Shown here: positions 2,784-30,944 of the stretch, in pieces
Layout: each line of letters begins with the position of its first letter
Numbering within the stretch: position 1 is the first letter of the stretch
IMG/VR virus record: IMGVR_UViG_3300034102_000073
Span: 1 to 55,428 of that record
Direction: 5' to 3' (one strand)
DNA length: 55,428 bases
From: a virus
Taxonomy: Duplodnaviria > Caudoviricetes
Program-made: the position numbers and the translations under genes
Notes under the pieces: generated by a model
The model's database searches: none
What the model was told of the DNA's origin: nothing
Seen by the model: only the letters and a program-made list of their open reading frames with translations

Positions 2784-3755
2784 ATGAGCAATCTCGTTCC
2801 AGTAAATGTGCAAGTTCCCGCCCACCTTGCAGCCCGTATCGGGCAACCATCGGCACTCGCTACATCTATGGCAGGTGGACTCGCCACTGGTGAAGCGTTT
2901 CCACGAATCAGCATTAAGGGTTCACGGTTCCGTATTGTCGAAGGTGATGCCGAGACTGTGTTGGACTCGACTACCATTGATGTAGTTGTTGTTGGTGCTA
3001 ACCCTCGCCTGAGTAAGACTTGGTATGCGAAGGCATGGACACCTGATAGCGAACCTGCTGCACCTGAATGTTTCTCGTTGGATGGTGTGTCACCTGACCC
3101 GCAGTCCACTCAACCACAGAATGATCTGTGTGCATCGTGTCCGCAAAATGCTTGGGGTTCGAAAGTCACGCAGCAAGGTCAGCAGATTAAAGCATGTTCT
3201 GACAAGAAGCGACTTGCTGTGGTGAGTGCGGATGACCCGACCGGCCCTGTGTACCTGCTTGAGGTAACTCCTGCGGCACTGAAAGGTTTGAACCAGTACC
3301 AAAAAGAACTGGCTCATCGCGGCATCGCCCCCGAAATTGTGCGTACCCGTGTATCATTCGATACCGATGCGTCGTTCCCGAAACTCAAGTTCGGTTTCGG
3401 TGGCTTTAATGAAGCCGATGCTCAGGAAGCTGTTGACCCGCTATTTGGTTCAGCGCAAGTCAAAGAGATCACTGGCGAAACTACTCGCCAACCTGTAGCA
3501 GTACCGCAACTTGCGGCTGCTCCTGCGCCAGTTGCACCGAAACCTGCCGTGAAAGTGGCAGAACCCCAACCCGCTCCTACCCCTGCGGAACCACCCGCTG
3601 CTCCCAAGCGCGGTTTCGGTGCAACCAAACAAGCGGCTCCTAAGGCTGCGGCTCCTGCTGCACCTGCTGCGGCTCCTGCTGCTCCTATGGCTGCGGCGGC
3701 GTTGGCTGATAGTATTGCCGCCCTTGTCGGGGAGGTAAACTCTGATGACGCCTAA
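2784..3755 (+). CDS. Putative single-stranded DNA-binding/annealing protein with Cys cluster and Pro/Ala-rich tail
   Basis: AAGGAG then ATG at 2784; PECFSLDG...CASCPQN...KAC; low-complexity linker and acidic end (SDDA). Confidence 0.7.
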   Translation: MSNLVPVNVQVPAHLAARIGQPSALATSMAGGLATGEAFPRISIKGSRFRIVEGDAETVLDSTTIDVVVVGANPRLSKTWYAKAWTPDSEPAAPECFSLDGVSPDPQSTQPQNDLCASCPQNAWGSKVTQQGQQIKACSDKKRLAVVSADDPTGPVYLLEVTPAALKGLNQYQKELAHRGIAPEIVRTRVSFDTDASFPKLKFGFGGFNEADAQEAVDPLFGSAQVKEITGETTRQPVAVPQLAAAPAPVAPKPAVKVAEPQPAPTPAEPPAAPKRGFGATKQAAPKAAAPAAPAAAPAAPMAAAALADSIAALVGEVNSDDA

Positions 3756-4032
3756 GCAACCACTTGACTTTTCCAAGGTCGAGGCGTTGCGCAAGCATAT
3801 GCTCCTAACAACAGTTGACATGGCTGCTCTGTTAGGAGTGTCACGGATGACGTACTACGGATGGGTAAGGGGGAAACCCCTGCGCAAATCCAGTGACCAA
3901 AAGGTGCGTCAGATGTTAAAGTCACTGCTTGCGATTATGACCGACCATGGCTGGCCTTCTCCTGAAGTTATTGCCATGGAGCAACCGCAACGCAAACAAC
4001 GCCTTGATGAGATTCTAGAGTCGTACGTATAA
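3745..4032 (+). CDS. XRE-like helix-turn-helix protein
   Basis: LTTVDMAALLGVSRMTYYGW HTH pattern; GGGAGG RBS. Confidence 0.8.
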   Translation: MTPKQPLDFSKVEALRKHMLLTTVDMAALLGVSRMTYYGWVRGKPLRKSSDQKVRQMLKSLLAIMTDHGWPSPEVIAMEQPQRKQRLDEILESYV

Positions 4033-4038
4033 GGGTGC

Positions 4039-4060
4039 GGCGGGGGAGCAATCCCCCGCC
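4039..4060 (+). terminator. GC-rich hairpin with GCAA loop between HTH and primase
   Basis: ggcggggga-gcaa-tcccccgcc; no U tract, so may be a processing or stability hairpin. Confidence 0.45.
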
Positions 4061-4077
4061 AATAGATAGGGGTATCA

Positions 4078-6981
4078 ATGAACACGCTTGATTTTTTGAA
4101 GCGGGTTCTTCCGTCAGAGGGGTTATATTGTTCATTCACTGTAGTGGGCAAGTACCCAAAACAGGTTCACCACCAGACGATAGAAGAACTTGCTGCTGAA
4201 GTACTGACAGATAGTCAGAAGGGGCACAACACATACTTTGCGATCTCCGCTTTCAATAGCGACGAGAGCAGGGAACAAGCAAACGTCAGAGTCATAAAGA
4301 CATTTGCGCTCGACATCGACTGCGGTGAGGGTAAACCCTACCCATCGTGGAAAGAAGGGCTGCTTGTTTTATCCGACTACATCCGTGAACTGAATCTCCC
4401 CGGCCCGATGATTGTTCGATCAGGCAACGGGCTACATGTTTACTGGACTTTGACTACTGAGATGACGCCACAGGAATGGCGTCCGATTGCTACGGCGTTC
4501 AAGGCTTCTGCTGTTGCCAAGTTCAAAGAACTTGCAGAGAAGCGCGGCATCATATCGCCCACACCGAGTAAACCCTATATCGACCCTGCTGTACCTGCTG
4601 ACCATGCGCGGGTGCTACGTCCTGTTGGAACCGTTAATACCAAAGGTGGCAATACAGTCGCCCTGATTTTCGACGCGCCACCTGTTGACCCACAACACTT
4701 TGCGTCGTTCTTCCCTGTTACCTATGGCTCACCCAGTGAGCCACCACCACGACACGCATCTGGCAGCACATTGCTAGATAACCTAGCAGTCAAACAAGAT
4801 TACCCGCCATCCAATGCTGATGCTGTTCTGAGCAAATGCCAACAGATTAAATGGATGTACGAGAACCGTCACGACAAGACCAAGATAGATGAACCGATAT
4901 GGTATCGGATGTTAGGTGTTGCAGCGTTCTGCCACGACTCCCATGCAGTTGCTATTAAATGGAGCGAAGGTCATCCTGAGTTCGACCCACAAGCAACCAT
5001 AGATAAGATGGAGCAGTGGAAGCAGAAATGTACTGGCCCAACATCATGCGAGAAGATTGAAGAAGTACGCCCCGATGGGTGTAAGGGATGTAAGTTCAAA
5101 GGAAAAGTTTCCTACCCCACACAACTTGGTATTCAGTATCAGGAAGTGCAGATAGCCCCCGACGCGCTAGACACTGCTGCTTACGAAGTGGAGTTGCCCA
5201 AACCATTTAAGAGAACCAACAAAGGCATTAAGGTCAGTATTGATGACGCAGATATTGATGTATGCCCGTTTGATATTTACCCTGTTGGGTACGGCAGAGA
5301 TGAATCACTTGGCTATGAGGTCGTCCGGTATCACTGGAACCGACAACATATTGGCTGGCAACCGCTGAACCTACGCCAAGCATTTCTCACCGACGGTAGC
5401 CGTGAGTTTGCAGGAGCCATTGCAGATCAAGGCATCGTTCTTTTCAACAAGAAACAAACGGAGTACTTCCAATATATGCTGCGCACCTACATGGACAAAC
5501 TGCGGCAGCAGAGAGCCATGACGAACCTCTATTCCACAATGGGATGGAAGCATGACTACACAGAGTTCGTCATGGGTGACACCATTCTGCGCTGCAATAA
5601 AGATGGAACTATCACAGAGGAACAAGTTCTCTTATCCTCTACATCCCAACGCCTAGGGCATGACCTCTACGGTACAAGCGGAAGCCTTGCCGAGTGGCGA
5701 GAGTTCACTCGTATCATGCCGAAGGTCAACTTGTTGGGGCAGATGTTTGCGATAGGCGTCAGCCTATCGTCGCCGTTGTATGCCTTCACAGGACTTAAAT
5801 CCACAACCGTGTCGCTCTACGGGCCGACAGGCTGCGGCAAAACCCTTGCTCAGTTGTGGGGTCAGTCTGTGTGGGGCGTACCTGAGAAGCTGCATTTCGC
5901 TGCCAAGTACACACAGAACGCTGTGTTCGCACGGTTTGGTCTGTACTGCAATATGCCGCTGACCATCGACGAAACCACGATGATGGATGTCAAAGATGTT
6001 GGTGACTTCCTGTACTGGATTTCCCAAGGTCGAGACAAAGCACGACTGAACCGCAATGCGGAGGAACGTGAGTCTAAAGAGTGGCAAGCCCCTGCCATAC
6101 TATCCAACAATACATCTATGGGTTCTAAACTTGTGGCATCCGGGATGGAAACCACAGCGCAGATGGTTCGACTGTTGGAAGTTTCGTTACAAGTCCACCC
6201 GATATTTAAGTCAGGTAGCACCGCAGGTCGAGACATCTATAACTTCATCTCATCTAACTACGGTCATGCAGGTCGAGAGTTCGTGAAGTATCTGTTGCAG
6301 CTTGGGCCTGAAGGTATGAAGGCCATCGTTGATGATGCGTTCAAGACTTTCCCTAAACGCTATCACCACCACTTCACAGGTGAAGAACGCTTTTGGGAAC
6401 AAGCCATTGTACTGGCTGACCTTGCTGTTCGGCTTGCTTACGAGAACAACATCGTGGCGTTTCCACCTGAGGTCATGACGAATTGGATTCTGAATCAGAT
6501 AGGTGCGCTGCGTAAGACAGTCATTGACTATCAGAACGATGGGTTCGATATGTTGACTGAATACCTAAACGAACACGCAAACATGGCGCTGACGGTATGG
6601 CACACAGGTGACACTAAACCTGCTGTTGATATGCAGCGGTTACCCCGTGGTGAAGTACGTGCAAGGTTCGACTGCCACCGTAAAGACCACTCCTCACAGT
6701 TTGACCACGGTACAGTGATGGTTGACCGTACGCACTTCCGTAAATGGCTTGCCATGAAAGGCGTGGACTACCGTGGATTTATACGAGAGATGACTTCTGC
6801 TCAGATTGTCGTAACGCCCAAGTCTAACAAAGCCAGTCTCGGTAAGGACAGCCCAATCAAACTGCCTCAGTCCTACGTGATTGCGCTGAACCTAAGCCAC
6901 CCCCGCCTCAAGGGAATCCTAGAGGACGAGGATATGGCTATCGACAACACATTGCTAGGTCAACTCAAAGTCGTTCAATAA
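4078..6981 (+). CDS. Primase-helicase (AEP-type primase + DUF927-like ATPase/helicase)
   Basis: DIDC and SGNGLHVYW primase motifs, C..C..C cluster, Walker A GPTGCGKT, Walker B LTIDE. Confidence 0.88.
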   Translation: MNTLDFLKRVLPSEGLYCSFTVVGKYPKQVHHQTIEELAAEVLTDSQKGHNTYFAISAFNSDESREQANVRVIKTFALDIDCGEGKPYPSWKEGLLVLSDYIRELNLPGPMIVRSGNGLHVYWTLTTEMTPQEWRPIATAFKASAVAKFKELAEKRGIISPTPSKPYIDPAVPADHARVLRPVGTVNTKGGNTVALIFDAPPVDPQHFASFFPVTYGSPSEPPPRHASGSTLLDNLAVKQDYPPSNADAVLSKCQQIKWMYENRHDKTKIDEPIWYRMLGVAAFCHDSHAVAIKWSEGHPEFDPQATIDKMEQWKQKCTGPTSCEKIEEVRPDGCKGCKFKGKVSYPTQLGIQYQEVQIAPDALDTAAYEVELPKPFKRTNKGIKVSIDDADIDVCPFDIYPVGYGRDESLGYEVVRYHWNRQHIGWQPLNLRQAFLTDGSREFAGAIADQGIVLFNKKQTEYFQYMLRTYMDKLRQQRAMTNLYSTMGWKHDYTEFVMGDTILRCNKDGTITEEQVLLSSTSQRLGHDLYGTSGSLAEWREFTRIMPKVNLLGQMFAIGVSLSSPLYAFTGLKSTTVSLYGPTGCGKTLAQLWGQSVWGVPEKLHFAAKYTQNAVFARFGLYCNMPLTIDETTMMDVKDVGDFLYWISQGRDKARLNRNAEERESKEWQAPAILSNNTSMGSKLVASGMETTAQMVRLLEVSLQVHPIFKSGSTAGRDIYNFISSNYGHAGREFVKYLLQLGPEGMKAIVDDAFKTFPKRYHHHFTGEERFWEQAIVLADLAVRLAYENNIVAFPPEVMTNWILNQIGALRKTVIDYQNDGFDMLTEYLNEHANMALTVWHTGDTKPAVDMQRLPRGEVRARFDCHRKDHSSQFDHGTVMVDRTHFRKWLAMKGVDYRGFIREMTSAQIVVTPKSNKASLGKDSPIKLPQSYVIALNLSHPRLKGILEDEDMAIDNTLLGQLKVVQ

Positions 6982-9900
6982 GAAAGAATCTCAGCCGCAG
7001 ACCTAAGGTCGGTACGTGATGCCTTAGGCGCGGTACGGAGATACCGCTGTGTTGCAGGACGGATGGCCTCGGCGTATGCCTTGGCAGCGTTCTCTTGGAA
7101 GTTGGCAATGTAGAGCGGTGTGCCATACGCTGCTCTATTCCAATCTGCTACTGCTGCGTTGATGTCTCTGACTTGATCTGAGTCGCCGGACATACGAGCC
7201 TTAATCCACGCCTGTTGATACCCCGCAGAAATCTCACGCTGGTAGTCTGTCATTCTCCGCGCTGTGCGGATGAACTCGTACTGCTGCGCCGCAGCTACAG
7301 GATAGAAGCCTAAAGCACGGGTTAGATAAGTTCCTGCGGTAAGGTCTTTGGACACCACGTAACCACGGCGATCAATGATCGCACCCGCGCTGTCGTACGC
7401 CAACATGTCGCCAAGTGCGCGACCCATGGTGATTGGGTTTTCCCGCAGTACATCAACCATTGAAATCTTCTCAGAGAACGGTGCTCTAATCGCGTTGGGG
7501 ATGGTAGATGCTACTCCCCACAACATTGACAGCGATGGGCCACCTATCTCCTCAAGCTCTTTGGCTGCATTGGAACCTGCAAGAAGTAGTCCTGTGCCGG
7601 GAACGAAGTTACCGACGGATACCCGTGACGCAATGTCAGCAGGGATGAAGGAGTTCAACACGCCGCGCATGACGTATGGAGAAATCCCCGGTGCGATCTG
7701 GTCGAGGTATTTAGCAACCTCATACCGGACGCTACCTGTGATACCTAGTTTCTGCGCGAGTGTGTCCAATAAGTCCTCGGCGTCCTCTGCAAATGGGAAA
7801 GCCAGCAGACCGCCGAACAGCCAGAGTGAAACAAGCATAGCTACTTTGCCGGGCCGGTCGAGGCGGTTCAACAACTGAATAGTTGTTGTTGGATACACCT
7901 TGTACATATACAAGAAAGACTGCAACCCTGTACGCCACGCAGATGGACGGTTCATCACCGAGTACTCACCAAGTGTGAACTTCAGAGTTTCAACAGCAAA
8001 GGCACGGGCGTCAGTAGTCGCTTCTGCTGGGCTTCTTCCTGCTGCAATAGCGCGGTCGTAAGCCAGACGATAAGCTGCAAGACCTAAGCCTCTGCGTACT
8101 GCTTGCTCTGTGGAGTTGAAAGTCCACATCATGCCATCAAGAAGTTTCTGTCCTGCACCGGAGGTTACTCGACCACGAGCAGTCGCCGTCAGTGCGTTGG
8201 ACTGCGCAGGAATCATCACACCTTCACGGATTTCATCTGCGATGAACTTAGCCTCATGCGATCTCAGACCATACTTAGCTTGCAGCTTAGGGTCTTTCGC
8301 AACAGCGTCATAGAACTCAGCCGTTTCAAATCCGGGGGTATCTTGCCCGATGTTACCAAGTGAAGTCATTGTTGACTTGCGTAGGCCAACTTGGTTTAGA
8401 GCAATACCAAACGCAGCCATAGACTTGGCGAATCCGAATCCGCCACCAAAGGCAGTCTTGGAGTTATAAGTTGCCAGATAAGGGATGCCGTTGGTTACAG
8501 CGCCCACATAGTTCAACGCACCCGTAGCTATAGATAAACCCAGTTGGAACACACTGGTATACGCACGGACAGAGGAAGCGACTTCACCGCTACCAAAGTC
8601 AGACTCGTCCACGTTGCGGTTATTGTTCAGGAAGGCAAGGAGTTGAGCAGCTTCGTTGTAGTACTGGTTAGCCTTCTCGTATGTACCGCCTTCATTGGTC
8701 TTGTTGTACATGAAGGCGTAGCGGTAGTAGTCAACTTTGGCGTAGTGCTTCTCCTCCCTAGTAGCAGTGGGGTTCTTCTCCATTGCTTCCCAGTGTCTAC
8801 GCTTTGTCTCAAGTACCGATTTGCTGCCATTCCATAGCTCGTTGGATGAGCGCAGGTTACGGTTCATGATCTCCGACAAGCGTGGACGGATGATGACCTT
8901 AGCGATTGTGGACGCACGCGCCTCGACATGTTGCATGATAGCTTGCACGCCATCACTGCTGGCCCCCGGTGTGAACTCACGCTTCAAGCGGTTACGCGCA
9001 CGAGCGTTCTGTTTGGTCAACGCAACCACTACGTTTTCCATCTTCACGGGGTTCAGGGTAATACCGAACTGCCGCAAGCCACGGACAAACTCGTTAAGGT
9101 TCAGTTCGAGTGGAGCAGCGATAGAGTTAAGCGCAGCCCCCGGCATTGCGGTAAGTTTAACTTCTTGGATTGTGTACCTGCCAGAAGCCTCATCATAGAC
9201 TTCTGCTTTGTAAGTACGATCCCCGAACAAGTCTTGGTTCAGAGTACGGGCGAACGCTACGGCCTCATCCTTACCCTCGAACTGAGAGTACACCAACATG
9301 TTCTTGTAGTCTTGCTTGAGGTTGACGACTCGTCCCGCTGCGTTAGTTACAACCACACGGACTTGATGATCGCCCTTACGGTTGATCGGGGTATAGCCTG
9401 TAGCCAGAGACTTTTTAGTGAACAGATCGGCGTCATCATTCGCCACTTCAAAGGTAATGATGTCTTTAAGGCGGTTCTGGATTGTGAACTTAGCCTGCTC
9501 ATCCCCTTCAGGGAAAACCAACCGCTGCTTAAAGTCTTTGGCAAAAGCGATAGCGTCATCGGCTACAGTCTTATCGTCAAAGAAACTTGCAAATCGGTCG
9601 TAGTCCATCTGTTCGCCAAGAATGATGGCTTTGTTTACTGCCACGATAAAGTCGTTGGCTTTCTCGATACTAGCCGAGTTCAGCATTGGGTCGCCGTTCT
9701 CGTCATAGGTTTTGTCGGCAGTGTAGAACTCTTTGTACCTACGGTAGATACGCTGGAAAGCCTGACGTTCTGCGGCAGTCAGAGCATACTTACCTTCTGC
9801 GTTTGGTTTAGTGATGTCAGCGATCTCACGGAAGGCCAAGTCTTGATCTTGTAGGAAGCTGCTGTATCTTGCCCACAAGAGTTTGACTTCAACTTCTTTA

Positions 9901-12900
9901 ACGGATTCACGAGCGCGTAGGTAGCCCTTCCAAACTTTGCTATCTTCGGTTAGGTCTTTGATCCCCGGCACGTTGACCTTCTCTTTGACTACTTCGCCTT
10001 TGTCGTTGAGATACTCGACATCATAGGAGTAACCATTTTTAGCTTCGGCGAAGGTCAGCTTACCTAGCTCGAACAGACGATCAACTTCAGTCTGCCCATT
10101 CTCATTTACGGTCAGCGCCAACTGTCCTTTGTCATCGACATAGAACAGCGGGGTTTTACCTAGCTTACGAACGTCACCGACAGTGGCTACCTTATAGCGC
10201 AGTCCACCGTACAGCAACTTGTTGACCTGATCTAGTTCTTCCGTGGTGATGCCACCTACTTCACCAATACCGAGTTTGACTGCGCGATTAAGCAGCACAC
10301 CAAGACGTTCTTTCTCTGTGACCTTGATGTTCATCGCAAGGTCTTTACCGGAATTCAGGAGGTCGTTAATAGCAGACAAGCCTGCGTTCTCACGGGCGCG
10401 GAAGTTGGTCAGGCTAAAGAACTGAGTCACGAACTTGTCTGCCGCAAACGAGAACTTACCGGTCTTATCAATGAAGCGTTGTACTGCCTCGTTGATGGAC
10501 ATTGGAATACCAGCGGCATCGTCCATCATTAGACCAGCCATCAAGTTATCCCTACGTAGGTCGCCTGCCATTGCGAAACGTCCAGACCCGTCAATATCCT
10601 GCCCATGCACCATACTTACCATACGCTGTGCAACATCTTTGGCGTCGAAGAACTGCGAGGTCTGTCCATTGCGGGTGTAAGCACGGGCTTGGTTGACAAA
10701 GAACCTAGCCGTTTCGTCACCGAATTTAATACCCAACTTGTTGAGCGCACCCTTGATAGAGTTCCAGATACGCGCCAGCAGGCTGGAATCCAACTGTGCT
10801 GCAAAGTCCGCGAGGTATTCCTCAGTAGCTTCTGCTTTAGACTGGTCGGTGACCGACATAGCAGCGTCTACATATGACTGAATAGCAGGGCTGAACTTGT
10901 AGATTTGCTCCATCAGAGCGTTGAACTGCTTCTCTCCGATCAGGCTGCGCAGTCCGTTGTGACCAATGGCTTCGTGAGCCAGCACGAAATTCAACTGCTG
11001 CTCAGTTGCTACGCGGTCAGCAAACACAATAACCGTGTCGCCACCAAAGGAGTACGCCACAGCCGATACGTTATCGAAGTCACCTTGCGTACGAGCCGCA
11101 GCAGCACGGGCGTAGAGTTCAGGGTTACGCGCCTTGAGATCAGCTTGATTCTTGTAGATGAATGTACGTGGCTTGACTGCTAGGCGAGACAGGAAATTCG
11201 CCACCAACATCTTGATCTTACCCATTGGCACTGGGTTGGTGATCGGCGTGCCGTCATCACGCTCAAAGCGTCCGGTGTCATCACGGTTGTTAGTGCCATA
11301 GGCGTTCCAATCATCGAGAGAAAACGGCGAACGGTACTCACCCTTGGCTTGGCCTTCCTCAGAAATCTTCACATCGGGATCAACTTCTCCGCGATCTTCT
11401 GCCTCAAAGTTACGTACCTCAGTATCCGATACCTCACGGACATAGACGCGTAGTTTGCCATTGACCACACGGGTCTTTGGAGTACCGTCGTCAAAGTAAG
11501 CAGAGATAGGATTGCCGCCCGGTGTTTCCCAGTCCTCAAGTTCAGCAGCCTGTACGTCTGCATACAGTTTCTTCAGCGCATTGATGGCGTCTTGCTGCTG
11601 CTTAGTGGTGTACGCCATACGGTTGGAGTTCAAACGCTGAATCTCGTCGAACAACTTAGTGGCAGGATTGCGTTTGGTGAAGTCGTTAGCCCCGTTGTCT
11701 TTTGCTTCTGTACCACCACGCTTGAGTTTCTTCAGCGTGTCCTTAGGGAAGTTGTCAGGACGTAGCTGCCCACCATCAAGATACAGTTGGGCGTCGTTTA
11801 CGCTGATACCAGTAAGGCGGGTCTTGATCTGCGGGAGTAATTCGTTTTCCTGCGCAAACTTAAACCATGGCTTTTCCATGCCTTTGTTTTCACCACGGGT
11901 GTACACGGCTTCGATAGTCTGAAGGGTATTGACCTCGTTCAGCACTATTTGTTTGATGAGCGCACGCTCAGTACTGCTCCAGTTCTTACTAGACAGATAG
12001 TCACGAGCGCGGGCTACAGCTTCAGCAAGATTAGTTTCTTCCGGCGAGAAGTATGCGTATCTAACCACAGTGGTTAGCGCATCAGCTTTACCTCTGATCG
12101 TCGTAGCTTCCTCGACGTTATTGATCTCATCGTTGACTACGCTGAGCGGAGTTATCTCGCCTTTGAGTAGACCTTCTTCTTTCTGCTCGTCAATGTATGA
12201 CTCAGTTAGAAGATTGGCCTCAGCCATAGTGGCCTTGCCACGAGTGACAAGGTTGCGCCACGACTGCTGGTGAACTGGGTTTAGCTTGTCGAACGTCGGT
12301 GCGTTATCAGGCTTTTTATCCTCCCACTGTTCTTCAGCAGTGACAGGCTCAGGCTCAGCTTTTTTTGGCTCGGCCTTTTTCTCAACCTTACCTTTCTTCA
12401 AGGTAGCAGCTTTTGGAGCAGGAACAATCTCTTGCTCTTTGCCAGCCTTGACTACATCTTTCCGAACAGCTTCTTGCTTATCTTCTTGCTTCTTTGCTTT
12501 GAGGGCTTGACCTTTTCCGGCAGTTTTCGGTTGTCCGGTGTCTCCTTCTCCCACCTTTTCGCCATCTCTGGTTCGTTTGCGTGCATCCAGCGGCGTTGGC
12601 TTTCGCTCTTGAACGGCATTTGTTTCCTCCCCTTTATAGACAGTTCGGACTGTCGTGTCTCCAATTTGGTCTAACAAAAATGCACGGTGATGCCCGTCGT
12701 TAATATAAAAAGAACCATCGGGCAATGCTGTTACGACTATTGGGTTTTGCGCAGTAAAGTCACGCAGACGTTGTTGTGCTTCGGGGTCTGCCTTAAACGC
12801 ATCGACCATCTCCCGCATGGTCATATATTCATCAATGTTCTTCATCCCCGCGACATTAGTCAGTATGTCGAATACTTGGGATTCAGTAACACCCTGAGTA

Positions 12901-15551
12901 CCAATCGCACCATTAGGACGCTTTATATTTGCAATAAGAAAATCAAACGATCCTTCTGCTGGCTTTACTTCTTGTTTCTTTCCTCGCTTCAAACCCCGCA
13001 TATTTTGCGCAGCACGCGCCGCCGCAATAGTATTTGCCGTGACTGGTGCGCCTGTCGGTGGAATCTGGGTAGTGCCTTGCTGCGTAGTCGGTACAACTTG
13101 CTGCCGCGTGCCTGCACTCTTTAGCGCTGCTACTGTAGGCTCGCCTTTTTGCGTGAACAACGCCATCTGTCCCATACGACGAAGATCGGCAGGAGTAACG
13201 GGTGTTACAGGTGCAACAGGCTCAGGTAATTGTGTACCCACACCACGGCGCAAACCTTCGGCACGAGAAGGACGAGGCAAATCACGGGGTCTAAATAACG
13301 GCAACTGCTGAGGGGTACGCTCACGAGGCGCAGTCATCGGCAGTGAAGGTGTCTGCGGTGTGCTTTCCTGCGGGAAAGCCAAATCCAGTTGGCGCTGGTT
13401 CTGTGCTGCTTGCGCTAAACGAGCTATCTCTGCCTCGCGCTGCGCAGCGGCAGCAGCCTCAGCTTGCTGAAACGCAGCCTGCCGTGCCTGTTGGTCTTGC
13501 AACTGCTGGAGTTGACCAGCCATCTGATTGTTGAACGGAGCCTGAGGTGCAGGTGGAGCGAACTGTAATGCACCCTGACGAGGATCAGAAGTAGGACTAC
13601 CAAGTGGCTGCGCATTAGGGATAATACCGAGTTGCCGTGCATAAGCGATTGCCTCAGGGTCTTCATTCAGTAAACCAATCTGAAGGTCTTTGACGCTCTG
13701 ATACCGAACTTGCCCACCCATGCGCGATGCCAATTCCTGCGCAGAGATGCTACCGCCAAATACATCGAGTACACCTTGCGAACCTTGCGTTGCACCGGGC
13801 GGGACGTTACCTTGTTGCCGTAGCATTTGGTCGGGGTAAGCCACGCCTTGCGGGGTGACCATCATTGTCGGGCCACCGACAGGACTTACCGGCGACACAG
13901 GGCCACCTAGCATTGGCGGTGGCGGTGGCGGCAGGGCAGGGAATTCCCTAGTAAATGCACCACCCTGCATAGGTGCAGCGGGCGGCGTTGGCGGCGGGCT
14001 AGTCGGAACAACAGCCCCGCCAGTAGTAGGCGGAGATGGGTCTTTGCCGCTGTCTAGAAGGTTTACTGCTAACTTGTTGTCACGAAGGTTGCTCAGGCCA
14101 CCAATGGGGCCACCGACACCAAAGCCAGCGGCAAAGGCGTTCAGCAATCGGCGACGCCCTTCAGGAGAATCAATGTTTACGTCTTTGTTGGCGTAGATAC
14201 CGAGCGATTCTTGGAAGGCTTCAGTCGCACCTTCTGCCAAACCACCAACGGCTGTACCCGTGGCGAGCCGCCGCCCGACTTCAAGGCTCTTACCTCCAAG
14301 GGTTTTTATATCACCTAGTGCGCCGCGTGCCATCCATTGAGGAGTACCACCCACACCGAAGATACGACTTGCAGCCAAGAACTCAGCGGCAGATTCAGCC
14401 AGACCGTAGGGGATGCCCAAAGCCACAGCCATCAGGCGATCACCTTCACCGTCGCCGCTCTCTAGGGTTTCTCCGTAGATGTCTGAGATACCAGTGGCGA
14501 TGTTCTGTCCAGTGGTTGCAAGCGTAGCCCCGCCAATCTGACCGGCACGCCTGTAGTACTGAGACAGAGTGTTCTCCGCAGCTTGACGTAGTGCAGCAGC
14601 TTCTTGCTGGATAGCAAGCCGTTCTGCTTGGTTCTTTGCTTGTGCAGCCAGCACCGCATCGTAGGGAATCAGGGCGCGAGAAGCCGATGGGTTCTTAATT
14701 GCCGCTGCTGCGGTAATACCAGCAGCTTCTTTGAGAAGTTTTGTTTCCGCTGCATCAAGAGCTTCACCGCGCAGATGCTTCTGCGCTGCCAGCATCACAC
14801 CCTTCTTGAATGTCTCCTTACCAGTCAGCGCCATAATTGCGCCGCCTGTAGCAGTTACAGGGTTCGGGCCACCACCGGCTGCGCCACCTGCGAGGAAGCC
14901 GACAGCACCAGTCACAATAGACTCAATAAGATTCGGGCCTTGTTGGGCAAGGTTAGCGGCGAACCAGTCGAACAACCCACGGTCACCGGATGTAACACCC
15001 ATGCCGTAGTCTTTCTTGTCGCCGATACCTGTGAACTCCCGCTGGTATACCTGATTACGGGACAAGTCTTGGATTTGCTGTTCGACTACGTTCCTGCCAA
15101 CCTTCTCCATACCAAGGAACTGTAGGCCGTAGCCACCAAGCAACTGAAGATTATCAACTCCGATACCGAAGTTCTTCTTCATCAACTGCCATGTAGTTGG
15201 GTCAGCGATGCTCTTAGCATGGGATAGATAGCCACTCACCGATACAGGACGCCAATCACCATCAGGCAATGGAGTACGCCCTCCATCAGGGCGCATATTC
15301 TTCAGTGACTCTACAACCGCTGTGTCGTTGTCAGCGTCGAACGTAGTACCGTTGACAAACAATCTGTTGGTTGACGGGCTGTATGCGACCGTAGCAGCAG
15401 GAATAAATGGTTGGAAAGCCGGAGCTTGAGGCCGTGGAGCAGCAGCATCAAGAGCGGCAGAATACCGCCCAAGATCAATACCCCCCATACCACTGCCCGG
15501 TTGGGGCGTCAGTCCGTAAGGAAGTCCTACCGTCAGTGCTTGGTCAGCCAT
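6975..15551 (-). CDS. Giant (2858 aa) internal virion/ejection protein, polyvalent: ParB-like domain and zincin metallopeptidase domain
   Basis: Last gene of the morphogenesis operon; INDGHHRA ParB-like motif; LAHEAIGH...EEYLA zincin motif; GAGG RBS. Confidence 0.85.
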   Translation of the reverse strand: MADQALTVGLPYGLTPQPGSGMGGIDLGRYSAALDAAAPRPQAPAFQPFIPAATVAYSPSTNRLFVNGTTFDADNDTAVVESLKNMRPDGGRTPLPDGDWRPVSVSGYLSHAKSIADPTTWQLMKKNFGIGVDNLQLLGGYGLQFLGMEKVGRNVVEQQIQDLSRNQVYQREFTGIGDKKDYGMGVTSGDRGLFDWFAANLAQQGPNLIESIVTGAVGFLAGGAAGGGPNPVTATGGAIMALTGKETFKKGVMLAAQKHLRGEALDAAETKLLKEAAGITAAAAIKNPSASRALIPYDAVLAAQAKNQAERLAIQQEAAALRQAAENTLSQYYRRAGQIGGATLATTGQNIATGISDIYGETLESGDGEGDRLMAVALGIPYGLAESAAEFLAASRIFGVGGTPQWMARGALGDIKTLGGKSLEVGRRLATGTAVGGLAEGATEAFQESLGIYANKDVNIDSPEGRRRLLNAFAAGFGVGGPIGGLSNLRDNKLAVNLLDSGKDPSPPTTGGAVVPTSPPPTPPAAPMQGGAFTREFPALPPPPPPMLGGPVSPVSPVGGPTMMVTPQGVAYPDQMLRQQGNVPPGATQGSQGVLDVFGGSISAQELASRMGGQVRYQSVKDLQIGLLNEDPEAIAYARQLGIIPNAQPLGSPTSDPRQGALQFAPPAPQAPFNNQMAGQLQQLQDQQARQAAFQQAEAAAAAQREAEIARLAQAAQNQRQLDLAFPQESTPQTPSLPMTAPRERTPQQLPLFRPRDLPRPSRAEGLRRGVGTQLPEPVAPVTPVTPADLRRMGQMALFTQKGEPTVAALKSAGTRQQVVPTTQQGTTQIPPTGAPVTANTIAAARAAQNMRGLKRGKKQEVKPAEGSFDFLIANIKRPNGAIGTQGVTESQVFDILTNVAGMKNIDEYMTMREMVDAFKADPEAQQRLRDFTAQNPIVVTALPDGSFYINDGHHRAFLLDQIGDTTVRTVYKGEETNAVQERKPTPLDARKRTRDGEKVGEGDTGQPKTAGKGQALKAKKQEDKQEAVRKDVVKAGKEQEIVPAPKAATLKKGKVEKKAEPKKAEPEPVTAEEQWEDKKPDNAPTFDKLNPVHQQSWRNLVTRGKATMAEANLLTESYIDEQKEEGLLKGEITPLSVVNDEINNVEEATTIRGKADALTTVVRYAYFSPEETNLAEAVARARDYLSSKNWSSTERALIKQIVLNEVNTLQTIEAVYTRGENKGMEKPWFKFAQENELLPQIKTRLTGISVNDAQLYLDGGQLRPDNFPKDTLKKLKRGGTEAKDNGANDFTKRNPATKLFDEIQRLNSNRMAYTTKQQQDAINALKKLYADVQAAELEDWETPGGNPISAYFDDGTPKTRVVNGKLRVYVREVSDTEVRNFEAEDRGEVDPDVKISEEGQAKGEYRSPFSLDDWNAYGTNNRDDTGRFERDDGTPITNPVPMGKIKMLVANFLSRLAVKPRTFIYKNQADLKARNPELYARAAAARTQGDFDNVSAVAYSFGGDTVIVFADRVATEQQLNFVLAHEAIGHNGLRSLIGEKQFNALMEQIYKFSPAIQSYVDAAMSVTDQSKAEATEEYLADFAAQLDSSLLARIWNSIKGALNKLGIKFGDETARFFVNQARAYTRNGQTSQFFDAKDVAQRMVSMVHGQDIDGSGRFAMAGDLRRDNLMAGLMMDDAAGIPMSINEAVQRFIDKTGKFSFAADKFVTQFFSLTNFRARENAGLSAINDLLNSGKDLAMNIKVTEKERLGVLLNRAVKLGIGEVGGITTEELDQVNKLLYGGLRYKVATVGDVRKLGKTPLFYVDDKGQLALTVNENGQTEVDRLFELGKLTFAEAKNGYSYDVEYLNDKGEVVKEKVNVPGIKDLTEDSKVWKGYLRARESVKEVEVKLLWARYSSFLQDQDLAFREIADITKPNAEGKYALTAAERQAFQRIYRRYKEFYTADKTYDENGDPMLNSASIEKANDFIVAVNKAIILGEQMDYDRFASFFDDKTVADDAIAFAKDFKQRLVFPEGDEQAKFTIQNRLKDIITFEVANDDADLFTKKSLATGYTPINRKGDHQVRVVVTNAAGRVVNLKQDYKNMLVYSQFEGKDEAVAFARTLNQDLFGDRTYKAEVYDEASGRYTIQEVKLTAMPGAALNSIAAPLELNLNEFVRGLRQFGITLNPVKMENVVVALTKQNARARNRLKREFTPGASSDGVQAIMQHVEARASTIAKVIIRPRLSEIMNRNLRSSNELWNGSKSVLETKRRHWEAMEKNPTATREEKHYAKVDYYRYAFMYNKTNEGGTYEKANQYYNEAAQLLAFLNNNRNVDESDFGSGEVASSVRAYTSVFQLGLSIATGALNYVGAVTNGIPYLATYNSKTAFGGGFGFAKSMAAFGIALNQVGLRKSTMTSLGNIGQDTPGFETAEFYDAVAKDPKLQAKYGLRSHEAKFIADEIREGVMIPAQSNALTATARGRVTSGAGQKLLDGMMWTFNSTEQAVRRGLGLAAYRLAYDRAIAAGRSPAEATTDARAFAVETLKFTLGEYSVMNRPSAWRTGLQSFLYMYKVYPTTTIQLLNRLDRPGKVAMLVSLWLFGGLLAFPFAEDAEDLLDTLAQKLGITGSVRYEVAKYLDQIAPGISPYVMRGVLNSFIPADIASRVSVGNFVPGTGLLLAGSNAAKELEEIGGPSLSMLWGVASTIPNAIRAPFSEKISMVDVLRENPITMGRALGDMLAYDSAGAIIDRRGYVVSKDLTAGTYLTRALGFYPVAAAQQYEFIRTARRMTDYQREISAGYQQAWIKARMSGDSDQVRDINAAVADWNRAAYGTPLYIANFQENAAKAYAEAIRPATQRYLRTAPKASRTDLRSAAEILSY
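12452..12619 (-). CDS. Nested out-of-frame small basic protein (55 aa, MPFKSESQRRWMHANEPEMAKRWEKETP...)
   Basis: GGGGAGG RBS 6 nt before ATG; +1 frame relative to the giant ORF; resembles, from memory, small stand-alone phage proteins beginning MPFKS.AQRR. Confidence 0.7.
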   Translation of the reverse strand: MPFKSESQRRWMHANEPEMAKRWEKETPDNRKLPEKVKPSKQRSKKISKKLFGKM

Positions 15552-26053: not shown

Positions 26054-27313
26054 TTACCAAACAGTTATAACCACACGCCCTGCGCCGCCGTTACCGCCCG
26101 CGCTGAACCCTGCACCACCCCCACCAGCGGGGGTACTTCCATTCTGCCCTGCACCACTGTCAAAAGCACTAGACGTTCCACCATTACCGCCGACCATAGA
26201 CTGCCCGCCAGCGGACGCAGCACCAGCAGCAACGGGCTTACCGCCACCACCACCGCCGCCGTATACTGAGTGTTGCCCAATACCATCAATAATCGAATAA
26301 CCGCCTACCATTTGGTATTTCGTAGTGTCCTTACGCATACCTGCACCGCCGCTAAATGTAGCAGTAAGGTAGATATAACCTAACCACGCCGACGTATATG
26401 GATTAGCAAATCCATCTTGCTGCCCACCGGGGAGTGTAGTAAATGGAGCGCCGCCAAGGGCAACGAGATTCATATTCCCGCCGCCAAAGTTATATCCTTG
26501 TTGGTACGCAAGACGACCTTCGCCACCACCCACGGTGTAGCCTAGGAACGTAGTCGTGCCGCCCGAAGCACCGTCGCCGTTGACACCGGTTTTTCCTGCA
26601 CCGCCCTGACCTACAGAACCGCTATAGGATGCGTTTGGTAGGTCTGTAAGGAGAATAATTTTTTCGAGGTATCCGCCACCGCCGCCACCATGAGCCTGTG
26701 TACCGTTTGCTGCTTGGCGGGAACCGCCAGCGCCTCCGCCCCACATCTGGATTAAGGCATACGTACCCTTGTTAGGCTTTGTCCATGTGAAGTTAGTAGG
26801 GGCTGCACCGGCTACATCACCGGTAAAAATTTGTCTGTCAACGACTGCGGAATCTTCAGTGACCGAGGTGACTAGACCTTTACTATTGACAGTGAATCTA
26901 GGCGTTAAACCATTGCCACCGAATGTACCGGCGGATACGCCAGATGCAGCTAGTTTAGAAGCGACTACTGCACCGTCCTCAAGATCATCTTCGCCAATTG
27001 TGCGGATAGGCAAATCGCCTAGTAGTGCTGCTGTAACACGAAGCTCAACTCGGTCACCTGTTGCGAACGCTTGCGCGGTCGTCCCGTCCTGCCCGCGCAC
27101 AACAGTAAGTGTATCGTTAGTGCGGTTAGTTACTTTTACAATTTCTAAGTTATTGGAGGTGTCAAGGAGCGTTACATAGAAGTAATTACCAGAGGCTACA
27201 GAAGCAGCAGGAAAACGCGCACCCTGACCAACAGCCAAACTAATAGTAGTCGCTGAGGAGTTAATCCCTGTAAGGATGGTACTGAACGCATTGTTTTTAA
27301 TCTGTACGCCCAT
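26054..27313 (-). CDS. Tail fibre/appendage protein 1 with glycine-rich C-terminal domain
   Basis: Shared NNA...RFP...NNLEIVKVT...RGQDGTTA anchor; WTKP...WGGGAGG Gly-rich domain. Confidence 0.8.
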   Translation of the reverse strand: MGVQIKNNAFSTILTGINSSATTISLAVGQGARFPAASVASGNYFYVTLLDTSNNLEIVKVTNRTNDTLTVVRGQDGTTAQAFATGDRVELRVTAALLGDLPIRTIGEDDLEDGAVVASKLAASGVSAGTFGGNGLTPRFTVNSKGLVTSVTEDSAVVDRQIFTGDVAGAAPTNFTWTKPNKGTYALIQMWGGGAGGSRQAANGTQAHGGGGGGYLEKIILLTDLPNASYSGSVGQGGAGKTGVNGDGASGGTTTFLGYTVGGGEGRLAYQQGYNFGGGNMNLVALGGAPFTTLPGGQQDGFANPYTSAWLGYIYLTATFSGGAGMRKDTTKYQMVGGYSIIDGIGQHSVYGGGGGGGKPVAAGAASAGGQSMVGGNGGTSSAFDSGAGQNGSTPAGGGGAGFSAGGNGGAGRVVITVW

Positions 27314-27316
27314 GCT

Positions 27317-27631
27317 TTACTCCGGCTTTGGATACTTGGCTTTAACAGCCAAACACGTATCAGTATATCGCTGTAACTGTGCAGTGTCACCTTTTACGAT
27401 AGCATCTAGATAATCTGTAATAGGGGGGTACTCCGCTTTACGCTTGCGCTGGTACTCAGCCCTACTCCATTCGCGGTTCAGCCGCAATACCTCAGCGTCA
27501 AGTTGCGCCTTTGTGGGCTTGTCAATCTGGGTATCCCGCCACTTCAACGTGCTGTAATCCTCCCCAATAATAGACCACGACGCGCCGGGGCAAAGAGACT
27601 GAATTGCATGTGTAATATCGTACTTACTCAT
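27317..27631 (-). CDS. Putative tail fibre assembly chaperone
   Basis: YQRKRKAEYP.I.D.LDA...VKAKYPKP motif; follows a fibre gene. Confidence 0.7.
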   Translation of the reverse strand: MSKYDITHAIQSLCPGASWSIIGEDYSTLKWRDTQIDKPTKAQLDAEVLRLNREWSRAEYQRKRKAEYPPITDYLDAIVKGDTAQLQRYTDTCLAVKAKYPKPE

Positions 27632-28626
27632 TGCGCGATCTCCATCAGCGTTACCGAACTGGTAGCGATTTCGTACCCACTCTGCCCGACTGCTGCACCG
27701 GAGACAGCCCGATTAAGATAAAACGTAGTCGCAGTACCATGGTTTATAAAGCGCAACTGGTAGGTCAGAGTGCTTGTAGTCGCCGGGGAGTCCATATAGG
27801 ACATTAACCGAGATTGAGGAGTCGAGTCGTCGTTGGCATCGTATACGCTAGATTTCCAACCAACCCATCCTTGTAGGGGTACAGCACTATTGTTACCGAT
27901 TGCTGTGCCATTTCGCGTCAAACGGAAAACTATATTGTGGTTATTCTGCTCGCAAGTTACGTCCATCAATACCCAGATTTTGCTGTCGCTGTACTTGGGC
28001 GTTATATCCAAGAACATATCCGTGACACTGGCCTCCAAATTAGCGGAAGTAGCAATCGTAGTTACTGTGTCTACCTGCTTATGCACAGTCTGAATAATCA
28101 TACCGGGAACTTTAATTGCCCCCGGATCAGCCCCATCTAAGTAGTGTCCAGACGGAATATCAATCACGTTAGACGGGCCGCGTAGCTCTGGCACGATCAA
28201 CGCACCAGTCATGGTATCGCCGGATTTCCTTACGACCTCGTTGACGCGTGGAATCTGGTTACCGGTCGCGTTGGCGATTGCCTCAAGATGCCCTAACATC
28301 GTACCGCCGCCGCGAGATACTTTATCGTCGAATAGCCCCTGTACAGGACGTAGCTCTACTCGTGAAGTAGAAGGGTAATTTCTTGCAGTAGTACCGTCTT
28401 GCCCGCGAACAATAGTAAATACATCAGTCGCAACCGCTGTTACTTTAACTACCTCAATGTTGTTTGAGGTATCAAGTATCGTAAGAAAAAAGAAGTCGCC
28501 TGATCCACCAGCAATAGATGGAAACCGCACCCCAGTACCTACCGCTACATTTAAGCTGGTATCAGAACTGGTAATTGAAGCCGCCAGTGTGCTGTATGCG
28601 TTGTTTTTTACAAGTGCGACGCCCAT
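27628..28626 (-). CDS. Tail fibre/appendage protein 2
   Basis: Shared anchor domain; KSGDTMTG repeats; C-terminal ITPK..SKI...DSPATTS..TY...TLMEIA domain. Confidence 0.8.
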   Translation of the reverse strand: MGVALVKNNAYSTLAASITSSDTSLNVAVGTGVRFPSIAGGSGDFFFLTILDTSNNIEVVKVTAVATDVFTIVRGQDGTTARNYPSTSRVELRPVQGLFDDKVSRGGGTMLGHLEAIANATGNQIPRVNEVVRKSGDTMTGALIVPELRGPSNVIDIPSGHYLDGADPGAIKVPGMIIQTVHKQVDTVTTIATSANLEASVTDMFLDITPKYSDSKIWVLMDVTCEQNNHNIVFRLTRNGTAIGNNSAVPLQGWVGWKSSVYDANDDSTPQSRLMSYMDSPATTSTLTYQLRFINHGTATTFYLNRAVSGAAVGQSGYEIATSSVTLMEIAQ

Positions 28627-28635
28627 ATCAAATCC

Positions 28636-29010
28636 TTATTCCCACGGTGGAACGAGCATTACAGGTTTTGGGATTACGGGAGCGTTAAGAATTCGTTCAA
28701 CGCTATGTTCCAACATGCTCTCGATATTTGTTACCTCTGTAGTACCTAGTGCGCTTTTTACCCATGTAATAACATCTTGCTCGGTAACAGTATCGTACTG
28801 AAGGAAGTTATCCGGGTCTATAGATGGAGCGTACCAACTGACCCCATCCTCGCGGACTTTAGGTTTGCATATCCGCAGCACCCGCTTCTCAATCGCAGAC
28901 GCACCGTTTTCCTCCGCCTTAATCTGTACGGAAACCTCGGTAACAACTGTACCCAACGGAGCGCCAGCATCGACACCCCGCATAGCCAAGACTGTCCATG
29001 TTATGTTCAT
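28636..29010 (-). CDS. Fibre-associated small protein
   Basis: GAGG RBS, ATGA overlap with upstream fibre stop; FLQYD.VTE..VI.WV...LG...PW pattern. Confidence 0.65.
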   Translation of the reverse strand: MNITWTVLAMRGVDAGAPLGTVVTEVSVQIKAEENGASAIEKRVLRICKPKVREDGVSWYAPSIDPDNFLQYDTVTEQDVITWVKSALGTTEVTNIESMLEHSVERILNAPVIPKPVMLVPPWE

Positions 29011-30944
29011 GCTGCTAAATCCTCTATAGGTACTTTTGTAAATACAGTCGCCATCATGGGCGAATCCTTCCAAGGGAATGGACTTGCCGGGTAGGTTGTA
29101 CCACCATCTGAACTTGGTAACACCCGCCCAGTAGCATAAAGCTCACCTTTAGTTGTAAGGAGAAGTCCGTATCCTTTTCTATTAGCGTTTATCGAGTGCA
29201 TAGCCTCCATCCAAACAATCTCGTTAGCAGGAACAGGAAGTAGGTTTGTAATATCACTATGCACCGTACCCGATACTGCGTCGTTCCCACGCGTGCCATC
29301 AACGGCGTACCCAACAGACATAATCTTGTAATTACCGGAGCCGTCTACCCACCGTGAATAGAAGAAGCCCTGTGCCTCAGCGCATCCGGGCCAAACGGCA
29401 TTTACAGAATACCCTGCCGGAATATCAGTAGCCGCAGAGAATGTTGTTTTCTGCGTTGTGTTACCCATCAAGCACTGATAGTAAGAACTAACGCCAGTAG
29501 TGTGCAATGTACCATCAGTTTTTTTGATCCATGTAGTATTCGCGCCAGTGCTATACCTATTACCTGCTATCCAGAAATCAGACACATCAGTAGCACGGGT
29601 TGCAAAAGTACTTTTTAGTACCGTAGTGCCGTCGCCAAGTGAGCCGTTATTATTGTCCCCAGCCCCCCATAATGTGTTATCGGGGAACAAAATCATGCAA
29701 TCCATGACTGCATTTTGCCCAGCGAACATGACTTTGGTGGGTGTACTAGTAGGTAGTTCAGGAATAGCTGCCCACCGTAATCGGTTAGCAACAGACCCAG
29801 CACCAAGAATTCCGGCTGCACCATACCCTAGTCCATACCAAGCACCAAAAAAATCTTGACACATAATACTAGGAGATACTGTTTGCAGAGGACACCAAGC
29901 GTCGCTAATAAAATTTAATGCGCTACCAGTTGAATCCTGTGTTGCAACCCATGTAGTTGAATCAGTAGTTGAGTTTTGCCCTAGCGCACCGGTTGCACCT
30001 TCGCCAGAAGCCCATATTTTGTTGAAGTTTGTGAGTACCCAGACGGTCTGATTAACATCGGAGACCGCTAATCCACGGTTGTTGGTAAGTACTTTACGAG
30101 GGTATTCCCCCCACCACGCCTTAGAGCTATCGGCATAATTCCAAATAAGTCTCCAACGCACTTGGTCAATCGCGTTACCGATACCAAAAGAACCCGCACC
30201 AGCTAGTCCGGTTGCTACGATATAACCGGCATCATCCCACGCAATAACAGTGATCTCGGCTGGGTCAGTGGCAAGGATCACCTCGTTGTAATCAAACGGG
30301 CCTATACCCTCTACATAAGTTGGAATCTCAACAAGCGAAGTCTGTATACGCTGATCTGTAGGGAAACCACCAGTGCCATAATAAGGTGCGTCTACTAACG
30401 CACTGCGAGCAGATGCGTACAAGATGTACCATTTACCATTAGTCGCTTTAAACGCAATAGCATAAGGCGAAACTTCGACTGGAAACGCGGTGTCTACACG
30501 TAACCGTGTGTTTCTGTATATAAAATCCGAATTAACTAGTAGAGTATCCCCAGACATAGGAGCGCCGTAGGAAGCGGCACTATACACCCCTATGTTATTA
30601 GTCAACACTCCTGTCATAGTGTCGCCGGACTTGGACACCTTCTCGTTGAAATGCTCACGAGTTACGCGCATCTCAAATCGATCACCAGCCACATACGCTT
30701 TTGCAGTTGTGCTTTGCTGCGCCCGTGTAATCGTGAATGTATTAGACGCAGCAGTGTGCGCCGTGCATTTCACAATCTCAATGTTGTTACTGGCGTCAAT
30801 CAACGTACCCCAGAAATAGTTAGTTCCTGTGATCGTTGGAAACCTAGCCCCCTGACCTGTTTGTAGGGTGAGCGAAGTCGCCCCACTTGCAAGGTTGGAA
30901 GCTAGGACACCAGTAGCGTTATTGGTTACGGTGGCAGCAGGCAT
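29007..30944 (-). CDS. Tail fibre/appendage protein 3 with RCC1-like beta-propeller repeats
   Basis: Shared anchor domain; repeats WASGEGATGALG, WGAGDNNNGSLGDG, HTTGVSSYYQCLMG. Confidence 0.78.
   Translation of the reverse strand: MPAATVTNNATGVLASNLASGATSLTLQTGQGARFPTITGTNYFWGTLIDASNNIEIVKCTAHTAASNTFTITRAQQSTTAKAYVAGDRFEMRVTREHFNEKVSKSGDTMTGVLTNNIGVYSAASYGAPMSGDTLLVNSDFIYRNTRLRVDTAFPVEVSPYAIAFKATNGKWYILYASARSALVDAPYYGTGGFPTDQRIQTSLVEIPTYVEGIGPFDYNEVILATDPAEITVIAWDDAGYIVATGLAGAGSFGIGNAIDQVRWRLIWNYADSSKAWWGEYPRKVLTNNRGLAVSDVNQTVWVLTNFNKIWASGEGATGALGQNSTTDSTTWVATQDSTGSALNFISDAWCPLQTVSPSIMCQDFFGAWYGLGYGAAGILGAGSVANRLRWAAIPELPTSTPTKVMFAGQNAVMDCMILFPDNTLWGAGDNNNGSLGDGTTVLKSTFATRATDVSDFWIAGNRYSTGANTTWIKKTDGTLHTTGVSSYYQCLMGNTTQKTTFSAATDIPAGYSVNAVWPGCAEAQGFFYSRWVDGSGNYKIMSVGYAVDGTRGNDAVSGTVHSDITNLLPVPANEIVWMEAMHSINANRKGYGLLLTTKGELYATGRVLPSSDGGTTYPASPFPWKDSPMMATVFTKVPIEDLAA

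Follow-up and report, generated by a model that had tools for sequence, protein, structure and literature searches.

A conserved small reading frame of the MPFKS family nested out of frame within a giant phage gene

Embedded out-of-frame genes are textbook rarities in phages, the familiar cases being Rz/Rz1 and phiX174. The candidate described here is an open reading frame (ORF) of 55 codons on the minus strand of IMG/VR virus record IMGVR_UViG_3300034102_000073, which lies within the gene of a giant protein of 2858 amino acids (aa) and encodes a small basic peptide of the MPFKS family, as it is called below. "The window" refers to the whole stretch of DNA analysed, a complete virus record of 55,428 bp that has terminal repeats and a podovirus-like genome.

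Among described systems, the embedded spanins of phage lambda, Rz/Rz1, offer the nearest parallel in layout. In their survey, Kongari et al. 2018 (PMC6139136) count 182 embedded systems, and 196 o-spanins that had not been identified. There too, the whole of a small phage gene is contained in a larger gene, from which it is offset to the +1 frame and where it has a start of its own; other members of the family come as separate or overlapping pairs, and gene callers routinely overlook the embedded gene. The present locus is alike in these respects and differs in others. Rz1 is an outer-membrane lipoprotein with a lipobox cysteine, which binds the product of its host gene and belongs to a lysis cassette (PMC6139136). 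Direct reading of the 55 residues of the nested peptide reveals neither a lipobox cysteine (0 Cys) nor a signal or hydrophobic stretch. Its host is not an i-spanin; it is a 2858-aa protein that ends a block of internal virion genes, and the hosts of MPFKS reading frames are mutually unrelated.

Two further comparisons concern members of the family itself. Gene 48 of Streptomyces phage FlowerPower (YP_009838084.1) is an annotated free-standing member ('hypothetical protein') that has the N-terminal motif and the basic tail in common with the nested peptide; tblastn aligns the two at 67% identity over 27 aa (E=1e-5), and the match starts exactly at the annotated start. Unlike the nested ORF, it is a separate, non-overlapped gene of 72 codons between a 'peptidase' and a holin, and it is more divergent (MPYKS, Y for W11). 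The elemovirus vB_FspP_elemoC_14-1A (MT497067.1) carries a 42-codon MPFKS ORF in the +1 frame inside the giant 'structural protein' gene QMP84890.1 (>3,200 codons); none of the four features listed at that locus is the small ORF. This copy belongs to a Cys-bearing subfamily with an A-rich leader and no Shine–Dalgarno (SD) site, and its host has no BLASTP match to the window host at E<1e-5.

On the side of the host, the polyvalent proteins of Iyer et al. 2017 (PMC5512222) are comparable: in the window, a late gene has a giant multidomain product in which a weakly ParB-like cassette and an HExxH motif occur, and MuF domains occur in other carriers of the MPFKS module. The difference is that the window protein has no Pfam domain at E<=0.01. 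The words 'overlapping' and 'linker' are absent from the main text of Iyer et al., and a nested gene is not described in it. No description of the nested gene or of its layout was found in the literature searched, where the supplementary tables of Kongari et al. 2018 or Iyer et al. 2017 could hold one.

The locus consists of the following elements:

12626..12635, minus strand: SD site AAAGGGGAGG, of the same type as at real gene starts and kept in three of three relatives (from sequence)
12452..12619 (stop included), minus strand: very probable nested gene for a small basic MPFKS-family protein (from sequence, homology, conservation and its being the sole family copy in the genome)
6975..15551, minus strand: host gene for the 2858-aa giant protein, last of the internal-virion (ejection) block by gene order

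The nested frame, its family and its layouts

The nested ORF opens with ATG at 12619-12617 and ends after 55 codons with the stop TAG at 12454-12452. A 6-nt spacer, aaacaa, separates the ATG from AAAGGGGAGG, whose core is GGGGAGG. The host frame reads this SD site as K-G-E-E and continues across the nested segment as ...GEETNAVQERKPTPLDARKRTRDGEKVGEG... without a stop. The offset between the two starts (15551-12619 = 2932 = 3x977+1) places the small ORF in the +1 frame of the giant gene. An earlier, sequence-only reading of this DNA had reported the SD site, spacer and 55-codon ORF in the +1 frame of an uninterrupted host gene; all of this was confirmed, and the translation is identical to the peptide given then. 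An in-frame TTG at 12664 would extend the peptide to 70 aa; unlike this longer version, MPFKS is the constant starting point of the family.

In a search of 5.8 billion proteins restricted to lengths of 30-97 aa, 138 of 142 small-protein candidates matched the nested peptide at E<=0.01 (best E=4e-21, 83% identity). The family follows the pattern MPFKS..QR.WM.AN.P.MA..WE.ETP, followed by a basic tail. An alignment of 29 sequences including the window has 13 invariant columns (M1 P2 F3 S5 Q8 R9 W11 M12 N15 P17 A20 W23 E24), and the window peptide carries MPFKS at its extreme N-terminus together with the core Q8 R9 W11 M12 N15 P17 A20 W23 E24. The family profile recovers it with E=1.8e-27 and matches 2980 cluster representatives at E<=1e-3, 449 of them at <=1e-10, among 1.84 billion. 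In IMG/VR, 466 of 506 stretches matching the pattern were confirmed as family members. The nearest library entry is PHROG 1375, to which the nested peptide matches weakly (E=0.0027, 19 bits) and two other members with E=2.6e-4 and 7.3e-4. All Foldseek matches in BFVD were uncharacterized phage proteins belonging to the family, and blastn of 2 kb around the nested site found no match among GenBank phages.

Pfam DUF3008 (PF11450) comprises short proteins beginning MP.KS..Q. The nearest named neighbour of the nested peptide in the Atlas is a cluster with 15% DUF3008 members (score 0.85). Searches gave no DUF3008 match for the window peptide (E<=10), for 29 members (E<=1) or for five divergent members (E<=10), and the last five matched no Pfam family at all at that threshold. 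Prochlorococcus phage P-RSP2 (HQ332139.1) holds, between annotated genes, an un-annotated 40-codon ORF, MPFVSEKQKKYLYAN..., at 3001-3123 of locus L003; it resembles a divergent family member, with a tblastn value of only E=0.01.

The module keeps to the start of proteins. Among 150 listed relatives (43-1178 aa), the match begins at residue 1-2 in 139 and within 40 residues of the N-terminus in every one. Where the module is fused, its C-terminal partners include NUDIX hydrolase domains (P0165, P0166) and MuF-containing proteins of about 1100 aa (P0243, L071), which may hint at cargo-like partners. Because the module always sits at the extreme N-terminus, it appears from sequence to be an obligate N-terminal module that needs a free N-terminus.

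Layouts were inspected in the best 80 of the 466 IMG/VR stretches. The family gene stands free in 57 of these loci, so that, together with FlowerPower gene 48, stand-alone homologues such as the earlier reading had described do exist. In seven it forms the in-frame N-terminus of a longer protein (224-1152 aa), one of them with a MuF domain. In 16 it is covered by a long frame, 12 of these being clear; eight of the 12 have hosts of 2018-3670 aa and four have hosts of about 400 aa. The latter are acidic proteins encoded directly 3' of the portal gene, with conserved N-termini upstream of the small ORF. Locus L081 was dropped as a nested case, since the 561-aa frame there stops after 8 nt of overlap with the small ORF. 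In GenBank, un-annotated nested copies occur in genes of >3,200 codons in Flavobacterium elemoviruses (68 records) and in a Podoviridae sp. genome, again with the small ORF in the +1 frame; these copies are of the Cys-bearing type.

The Cys-bearing subfamily (..QMKACY..NPKWDCKKW..) comprises 233 confirmed IMG/VR stretches. In the best 80 of these (L089-L168), the ORF is nested every time and free-standing in none; the ORFs at 6001-6129 of L001 and 8001-8132 of L002 belong to this subfamily as well. Fifty of the 80 hosts measure 300-500 aa and 20 at least 1000 aa, while 10 are cut by the end of the locus, giving two host classes of about 400 aa and of 1274-3984 aa. All 80 small ORFs begin with ATG, stay open for 41-52 codons and have an A-rich leader (0.59 vs 0.37) without SD site.

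Every nested case lies in the +1 frame of its host; this holds for 13 of 13 unique sequences of the first set and for all 80 Cys-subfamily loci. Of 53 free-standing copies, just 10 have no stop within the first 34 codons of the frame equivalent to the host frame, and 50 have none in the other alternative frame. As the host-equivalent frame is stopped in 43 of the 53, nested copies occupy the frame which depends on the choice of codons to remain open. It is possible that nesting in one frame only reflects a single origin of the dual-coding cassette; another possibility is that the Lys codons read in that frame as Glu/Lys and not as runs of Arg. In the window genome the nested ORF is the only copy of the family, as it is in five of five other records with a nested copy (6/6 in total). 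No host is as old or as widespread as the MPFKS family.

Several phages carry the small gene directly before the gene of the large terminase subunit TerL or overlapping its 5' end. In L007 the small ORF spans 3472-3603 and the 'host' is TerL itself (3291-5324); in three other loci TerL is next downstream. The portal gene, too, is among the neighbours of family members elsewhere.

Selection on the shared segment and competing explanations

The giant hosts are nearly without mutual BLASTP similarity. The window host has one close relative, L005, with 84% identity, and three short BLASTP matches besides, two of which include the overlapped segment. Relatives were therefore sought independently of the peptide, through host residues 1040-1500 only, and three were retrieved. 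All three preserve the SD site (GGGGAGG or GGAGAGG), the ATG, the +1 frame, the length of 55 codons and the stop. Most of the differences within the 165 nt are at third positions of the small frame (e.g. 6/6/19). Over the overlap, the small frame has a ratio of non-synonymous to synonymous differences (pN/pS) of 0.2-0.3 and the host frame one of 0.9-2.0, compared with 0.09-0.30 in the host-only flanks of the same genes, where pS is 0.55-0.72. The checks proposed by the sequence-only reading thus came out in its favour: ribosome-binding site, ATG and frame are conserved in related giant genes, and most substitutions are silent in the small frame but change the residue read in the host frame. 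Neither a stop in the +1 frame nor a loss of SD site or ATG occurred in these relatives.

In all likelihood, 12452-12619 is a genuine, separately translated gene inside the giant gene. Ribosomes on the late structural mRNA would start at the nested SD site and ATG, and the product would be a 55-aa basic protein. Read one base earlier, the same DNA would give a probably disordered linker of the giant protein, preceded by the swappable ParB-like cassette and followed by a helical domain. It is the small frame on which selection acts, with the host frame merely kept stop-free, and the linker of the giant gene would have been written over the small gene, not the reverse.

Of the alternatives, the one that survives best, with small credence nonetheless, holds that the ORF is a relic: a free-standing gene swallowed in a fusion of two virion genes, unexpressed and open only because its capture is recent. 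The free-standing state is indeed common and probably ancestral, cassettes are shuffled right at the border of the nested gene, and expression is deduced from sequence. A relic would hardly show a small-frame pN/pS of 0.2-0.3 when the flanks have had time to reach the pS given above, nor an intact ATG, SD site, length and stop in three of three relatives. The constant ATG and open frame in all 80 Cys-subfamily loci, and the position of the nested ORF as sole family copy in six of six records, speak against it as well.

A programmed frameshift is very improbable. A -1 shift could join the small N-terminus to the host C-terminus, or a +1 shift from the host could yield a truncated form. In favour of this, hosts are consistently read in the -1 frame of the small ORF, the module forms the in-frame N-terminus of long proteins in other phages, some with MuF, and there are A-runs within the Lys-rich tails. 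The X_XXY_YYZ heptamer, however, is absent from the window and from 16 of 18 nested ORFs, and the two present differ in place, so that none is conserved. For want of slippery sites the -1 shift was rejected. The conserved SD site and ATG point to independent initiation instead, and free-standing copies end at similar lengths.

The shared segment could also be read the other way round, the conserved element being a motif of the giant proteins, or a recombination linker of DNA or RNA, with the peptide similarity in the +1 frame as a by-product. A host-frame reading NAVQE..T..VD...DGE..GEGD does recur in giant proteins that have almost no other BLASTP similarity and would pass for a conserved motif, and module swaps end at the nested segment. 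Yet free-standing genes keep the peptide without any host frame, the host-equivalent frame being mostly stopped in them. In nested copies, entropy by codon position of the small frame is 0.37/0.20/0.79, and 0.34/0.30/0.74 in the Cys subfamily, whose nested loci have an amino-acid identity of 0.82 in the small frame vs 0.645 in the host frame; these loci were picked by peptide similarity, which biases the figures by ascertainment. Third positions of the small frame, where variation is concentrated, are first positions of the host frame, and host third positions vary least. Together with the host pN/pS of 0.9-2.0, this leaves the explanation scarcely credible. Given the substitution pattern, the NAVQE..T..VD...DGE..GEGD motif is itself probably a by-product of the small gene.

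A chance ORF with a chance SD site in a long gene can be dismissed: stretches of 70-80 open codons are common in the giant gene's +1 frame, where the 72-codon stretch holding the nested ORF ranks fourth longest among 124, but homology to called proteins (E=4e-21, profile E=1.8e-27) and conservation in relatives are far beyond coincidence. The start site adds to this. Real gene starts of this phage have AGGAG or GGAGG with spacers of 5-8 nt, the nested SD site is of the same kind and spacing, and it is the sole SD site plus ATG with an ORF of at least 30 aa within the giant gene on that strand.

The giant gene, its linker and the neighbouring cassette

Two further elements of the host gene contain or adjoin the nested gene:

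12354..12755 (host residues 933-1066), minus strand: low-confidence, mostly coil stretch, a probable disordered linker in the structure model
12620..12950, minus strand: swappable cassette of about 110 aa, weakly ParB-like by alignment, ending at the SD site of the nested gene

The nested gene corresponds to host residues 978-1033 and lies wholly inside the coil stretch. A model of host residues 860-1200 gives a predicted local distance difference test score (pLDDT) <50 at 933-1066 (segment residues 74-207), followed by a helical domain with pLDDT 75-88; with an alignment of only four rows, the model is weak evidence. This agrees with the earlier description of the segment as a disordered linker, within the limits of that alignment.

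Genes on the minus strand follow the order terminase, portal/adaptor, tail fibres and internal virion proteins, with the giant gene last. Its neighbours encode two internal virion proteins, one of them with a lysozyme domain, and it is this gene order that favours the name 'ejection protein' used in the earlier reading, whose overall proposal, a dual-coding segment with a small basic gene in the linker of such a protein, is supported. The C-terminus of the giant protein matches phrog_11358 and phrog_21376, both of unknown function. Pfam gave no match at E<=0.01 for the whole protein and none for its HExxH region.

Directly upstream of the nested SD site, the cassette is ParB-like in the window and L086 and consists of MORN repeats in L085 and L087. 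The ParBc_2 match of the window cassette (E=0.0066) is below the cut-off, and the MORN match in L085 (5599-5796) has E=1.5e-12. The flanks group the window with L085 and L086 with L087, and cassette content cuts across that grouping; a recombination joint therefore lies at the nested gene.

Elsewhere in the window, three tail-fibre-like genes on the minus strand (26054-27313, 27628-28626 and 29007-30944) have a common N-terminal domain of about 100 aa (phrog_8469/6427) and differing C-termini. One of them contains RCC1-like repeats (phrog_4219).

Possible function and significance of the nested gene

The nested peptide has 17 K/R and 7 D/E among its 55 residues, which amounts to a net charge of about +10. 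In an AF2 model built on the 29-sequence alignment (pLDDT 78), helices span residues 6-15, 17-26 and 41-52, and the invariant Pro17 parts the first two. In the protein, the MPFKS segment, conserved at the N-terminus, would be followed by a hairpin of two helices and then by a TP..LP.KV motif, and the tail is rich in Lys/Arg. In the hairpin, W11/M12 would pack against M19/A20/W23, and the Cys pair of the Cys subfamily falls on hydrophobic hairpin positions, which fits a hairpin contact. Prediction of a homodimer from two copies gave a score of 0.00, which was counted neither for nor against binding. A ribbon-helix-helix DNA-binding fold and a catalytic role of an N-terminal proline were ideas considered from the predicted fold. 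By the known specificity of methionine aminopeptidase, removal of Met would leave an N-terminal proline on MPFKS proteins.

A function can be suggested only tentatively. In podophage T7, gp6.7 and gp7.3 are small proteins of the core and tail that assemble with the core/ejection apparatus (Zheng et al. 2024, PMC11784390). The analogy is one of function, made without a comparison of sequences, and in T7 these are separate genes, unlike the nested ORF. On the strength of this analogy and of the late, virion-related context, the nested gene possibly encodes a small basic protein acting together with the machinery of the head, of packaging or of ejection.

Several points weigh against these conclusions. 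Translation of the nested gene is read from sequence, and its late timing likewise from context; ORF length by itself is unremarkable. The unbiased test comprises three relatives and 55 codons, the entropy and identity figures carry their ascertainment bias, and the layouts cover part of the confirmed stretches. The other four of the 16 covered loci, L007-L009 and L025, are ambiguous, as the host may start inside or after the small ORF. As regards function, Pfam offers no family for the nested peptide apart from a sub-threshold FlgA_HD-like match. A profile search of solved structures stayed at or above E=0.1 throughout, with just a 13-residue word match to SH3BGRL proteins, and all named relatives are 'hypothetical' or 'uncharacterized', the cluster names being 'hypothetical protein' throughout. 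The virion or ejection role is drawn from gene neighbourhood and analogy, and free-standing members also adjoin lysis genes (FlowerPower) and lie near replication genes.

A requirement for a free N-terminus would account for the placement of the module out of frame with its own start, not as an in-frame domain. A broader proposal, which is doubtful as a whole, is that the MPFKS module cannot function unless its N-terminus is free and is for this reason never set in frame within long proteins, that giant polyvalent genes were assembled across the older small gene, which stayed intact, and that the dual-coding cassette is a portable domain-shuffling junction among unrelated giants. If true, the -1 frame of the small gene was recruited as a disordered linker, which would be overprinting in reverse. 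The portable cassette would also explain the uniform relative frame, despite the other frame being open far more often in free-standing copies, the swaps that end at the nested SD site and the NAVQE...GEGD motif as a shadow.

The locus reveals one very widespread family of small proteins that lies hidden, in unrelated lineages, within phage genes that rank among the largest. This conserved phage protein is systematically missed by gene callers, including in cultured elemoviruses, and a recurring 'motif' of giant virion proteins is probably the by-product of another frame. Being both the older of the two partners and the sole copy in its genome, the nested gene offers a clean natural system for the study of dual coding; it is also the mark of a recombination joint in polyvalent proteins.

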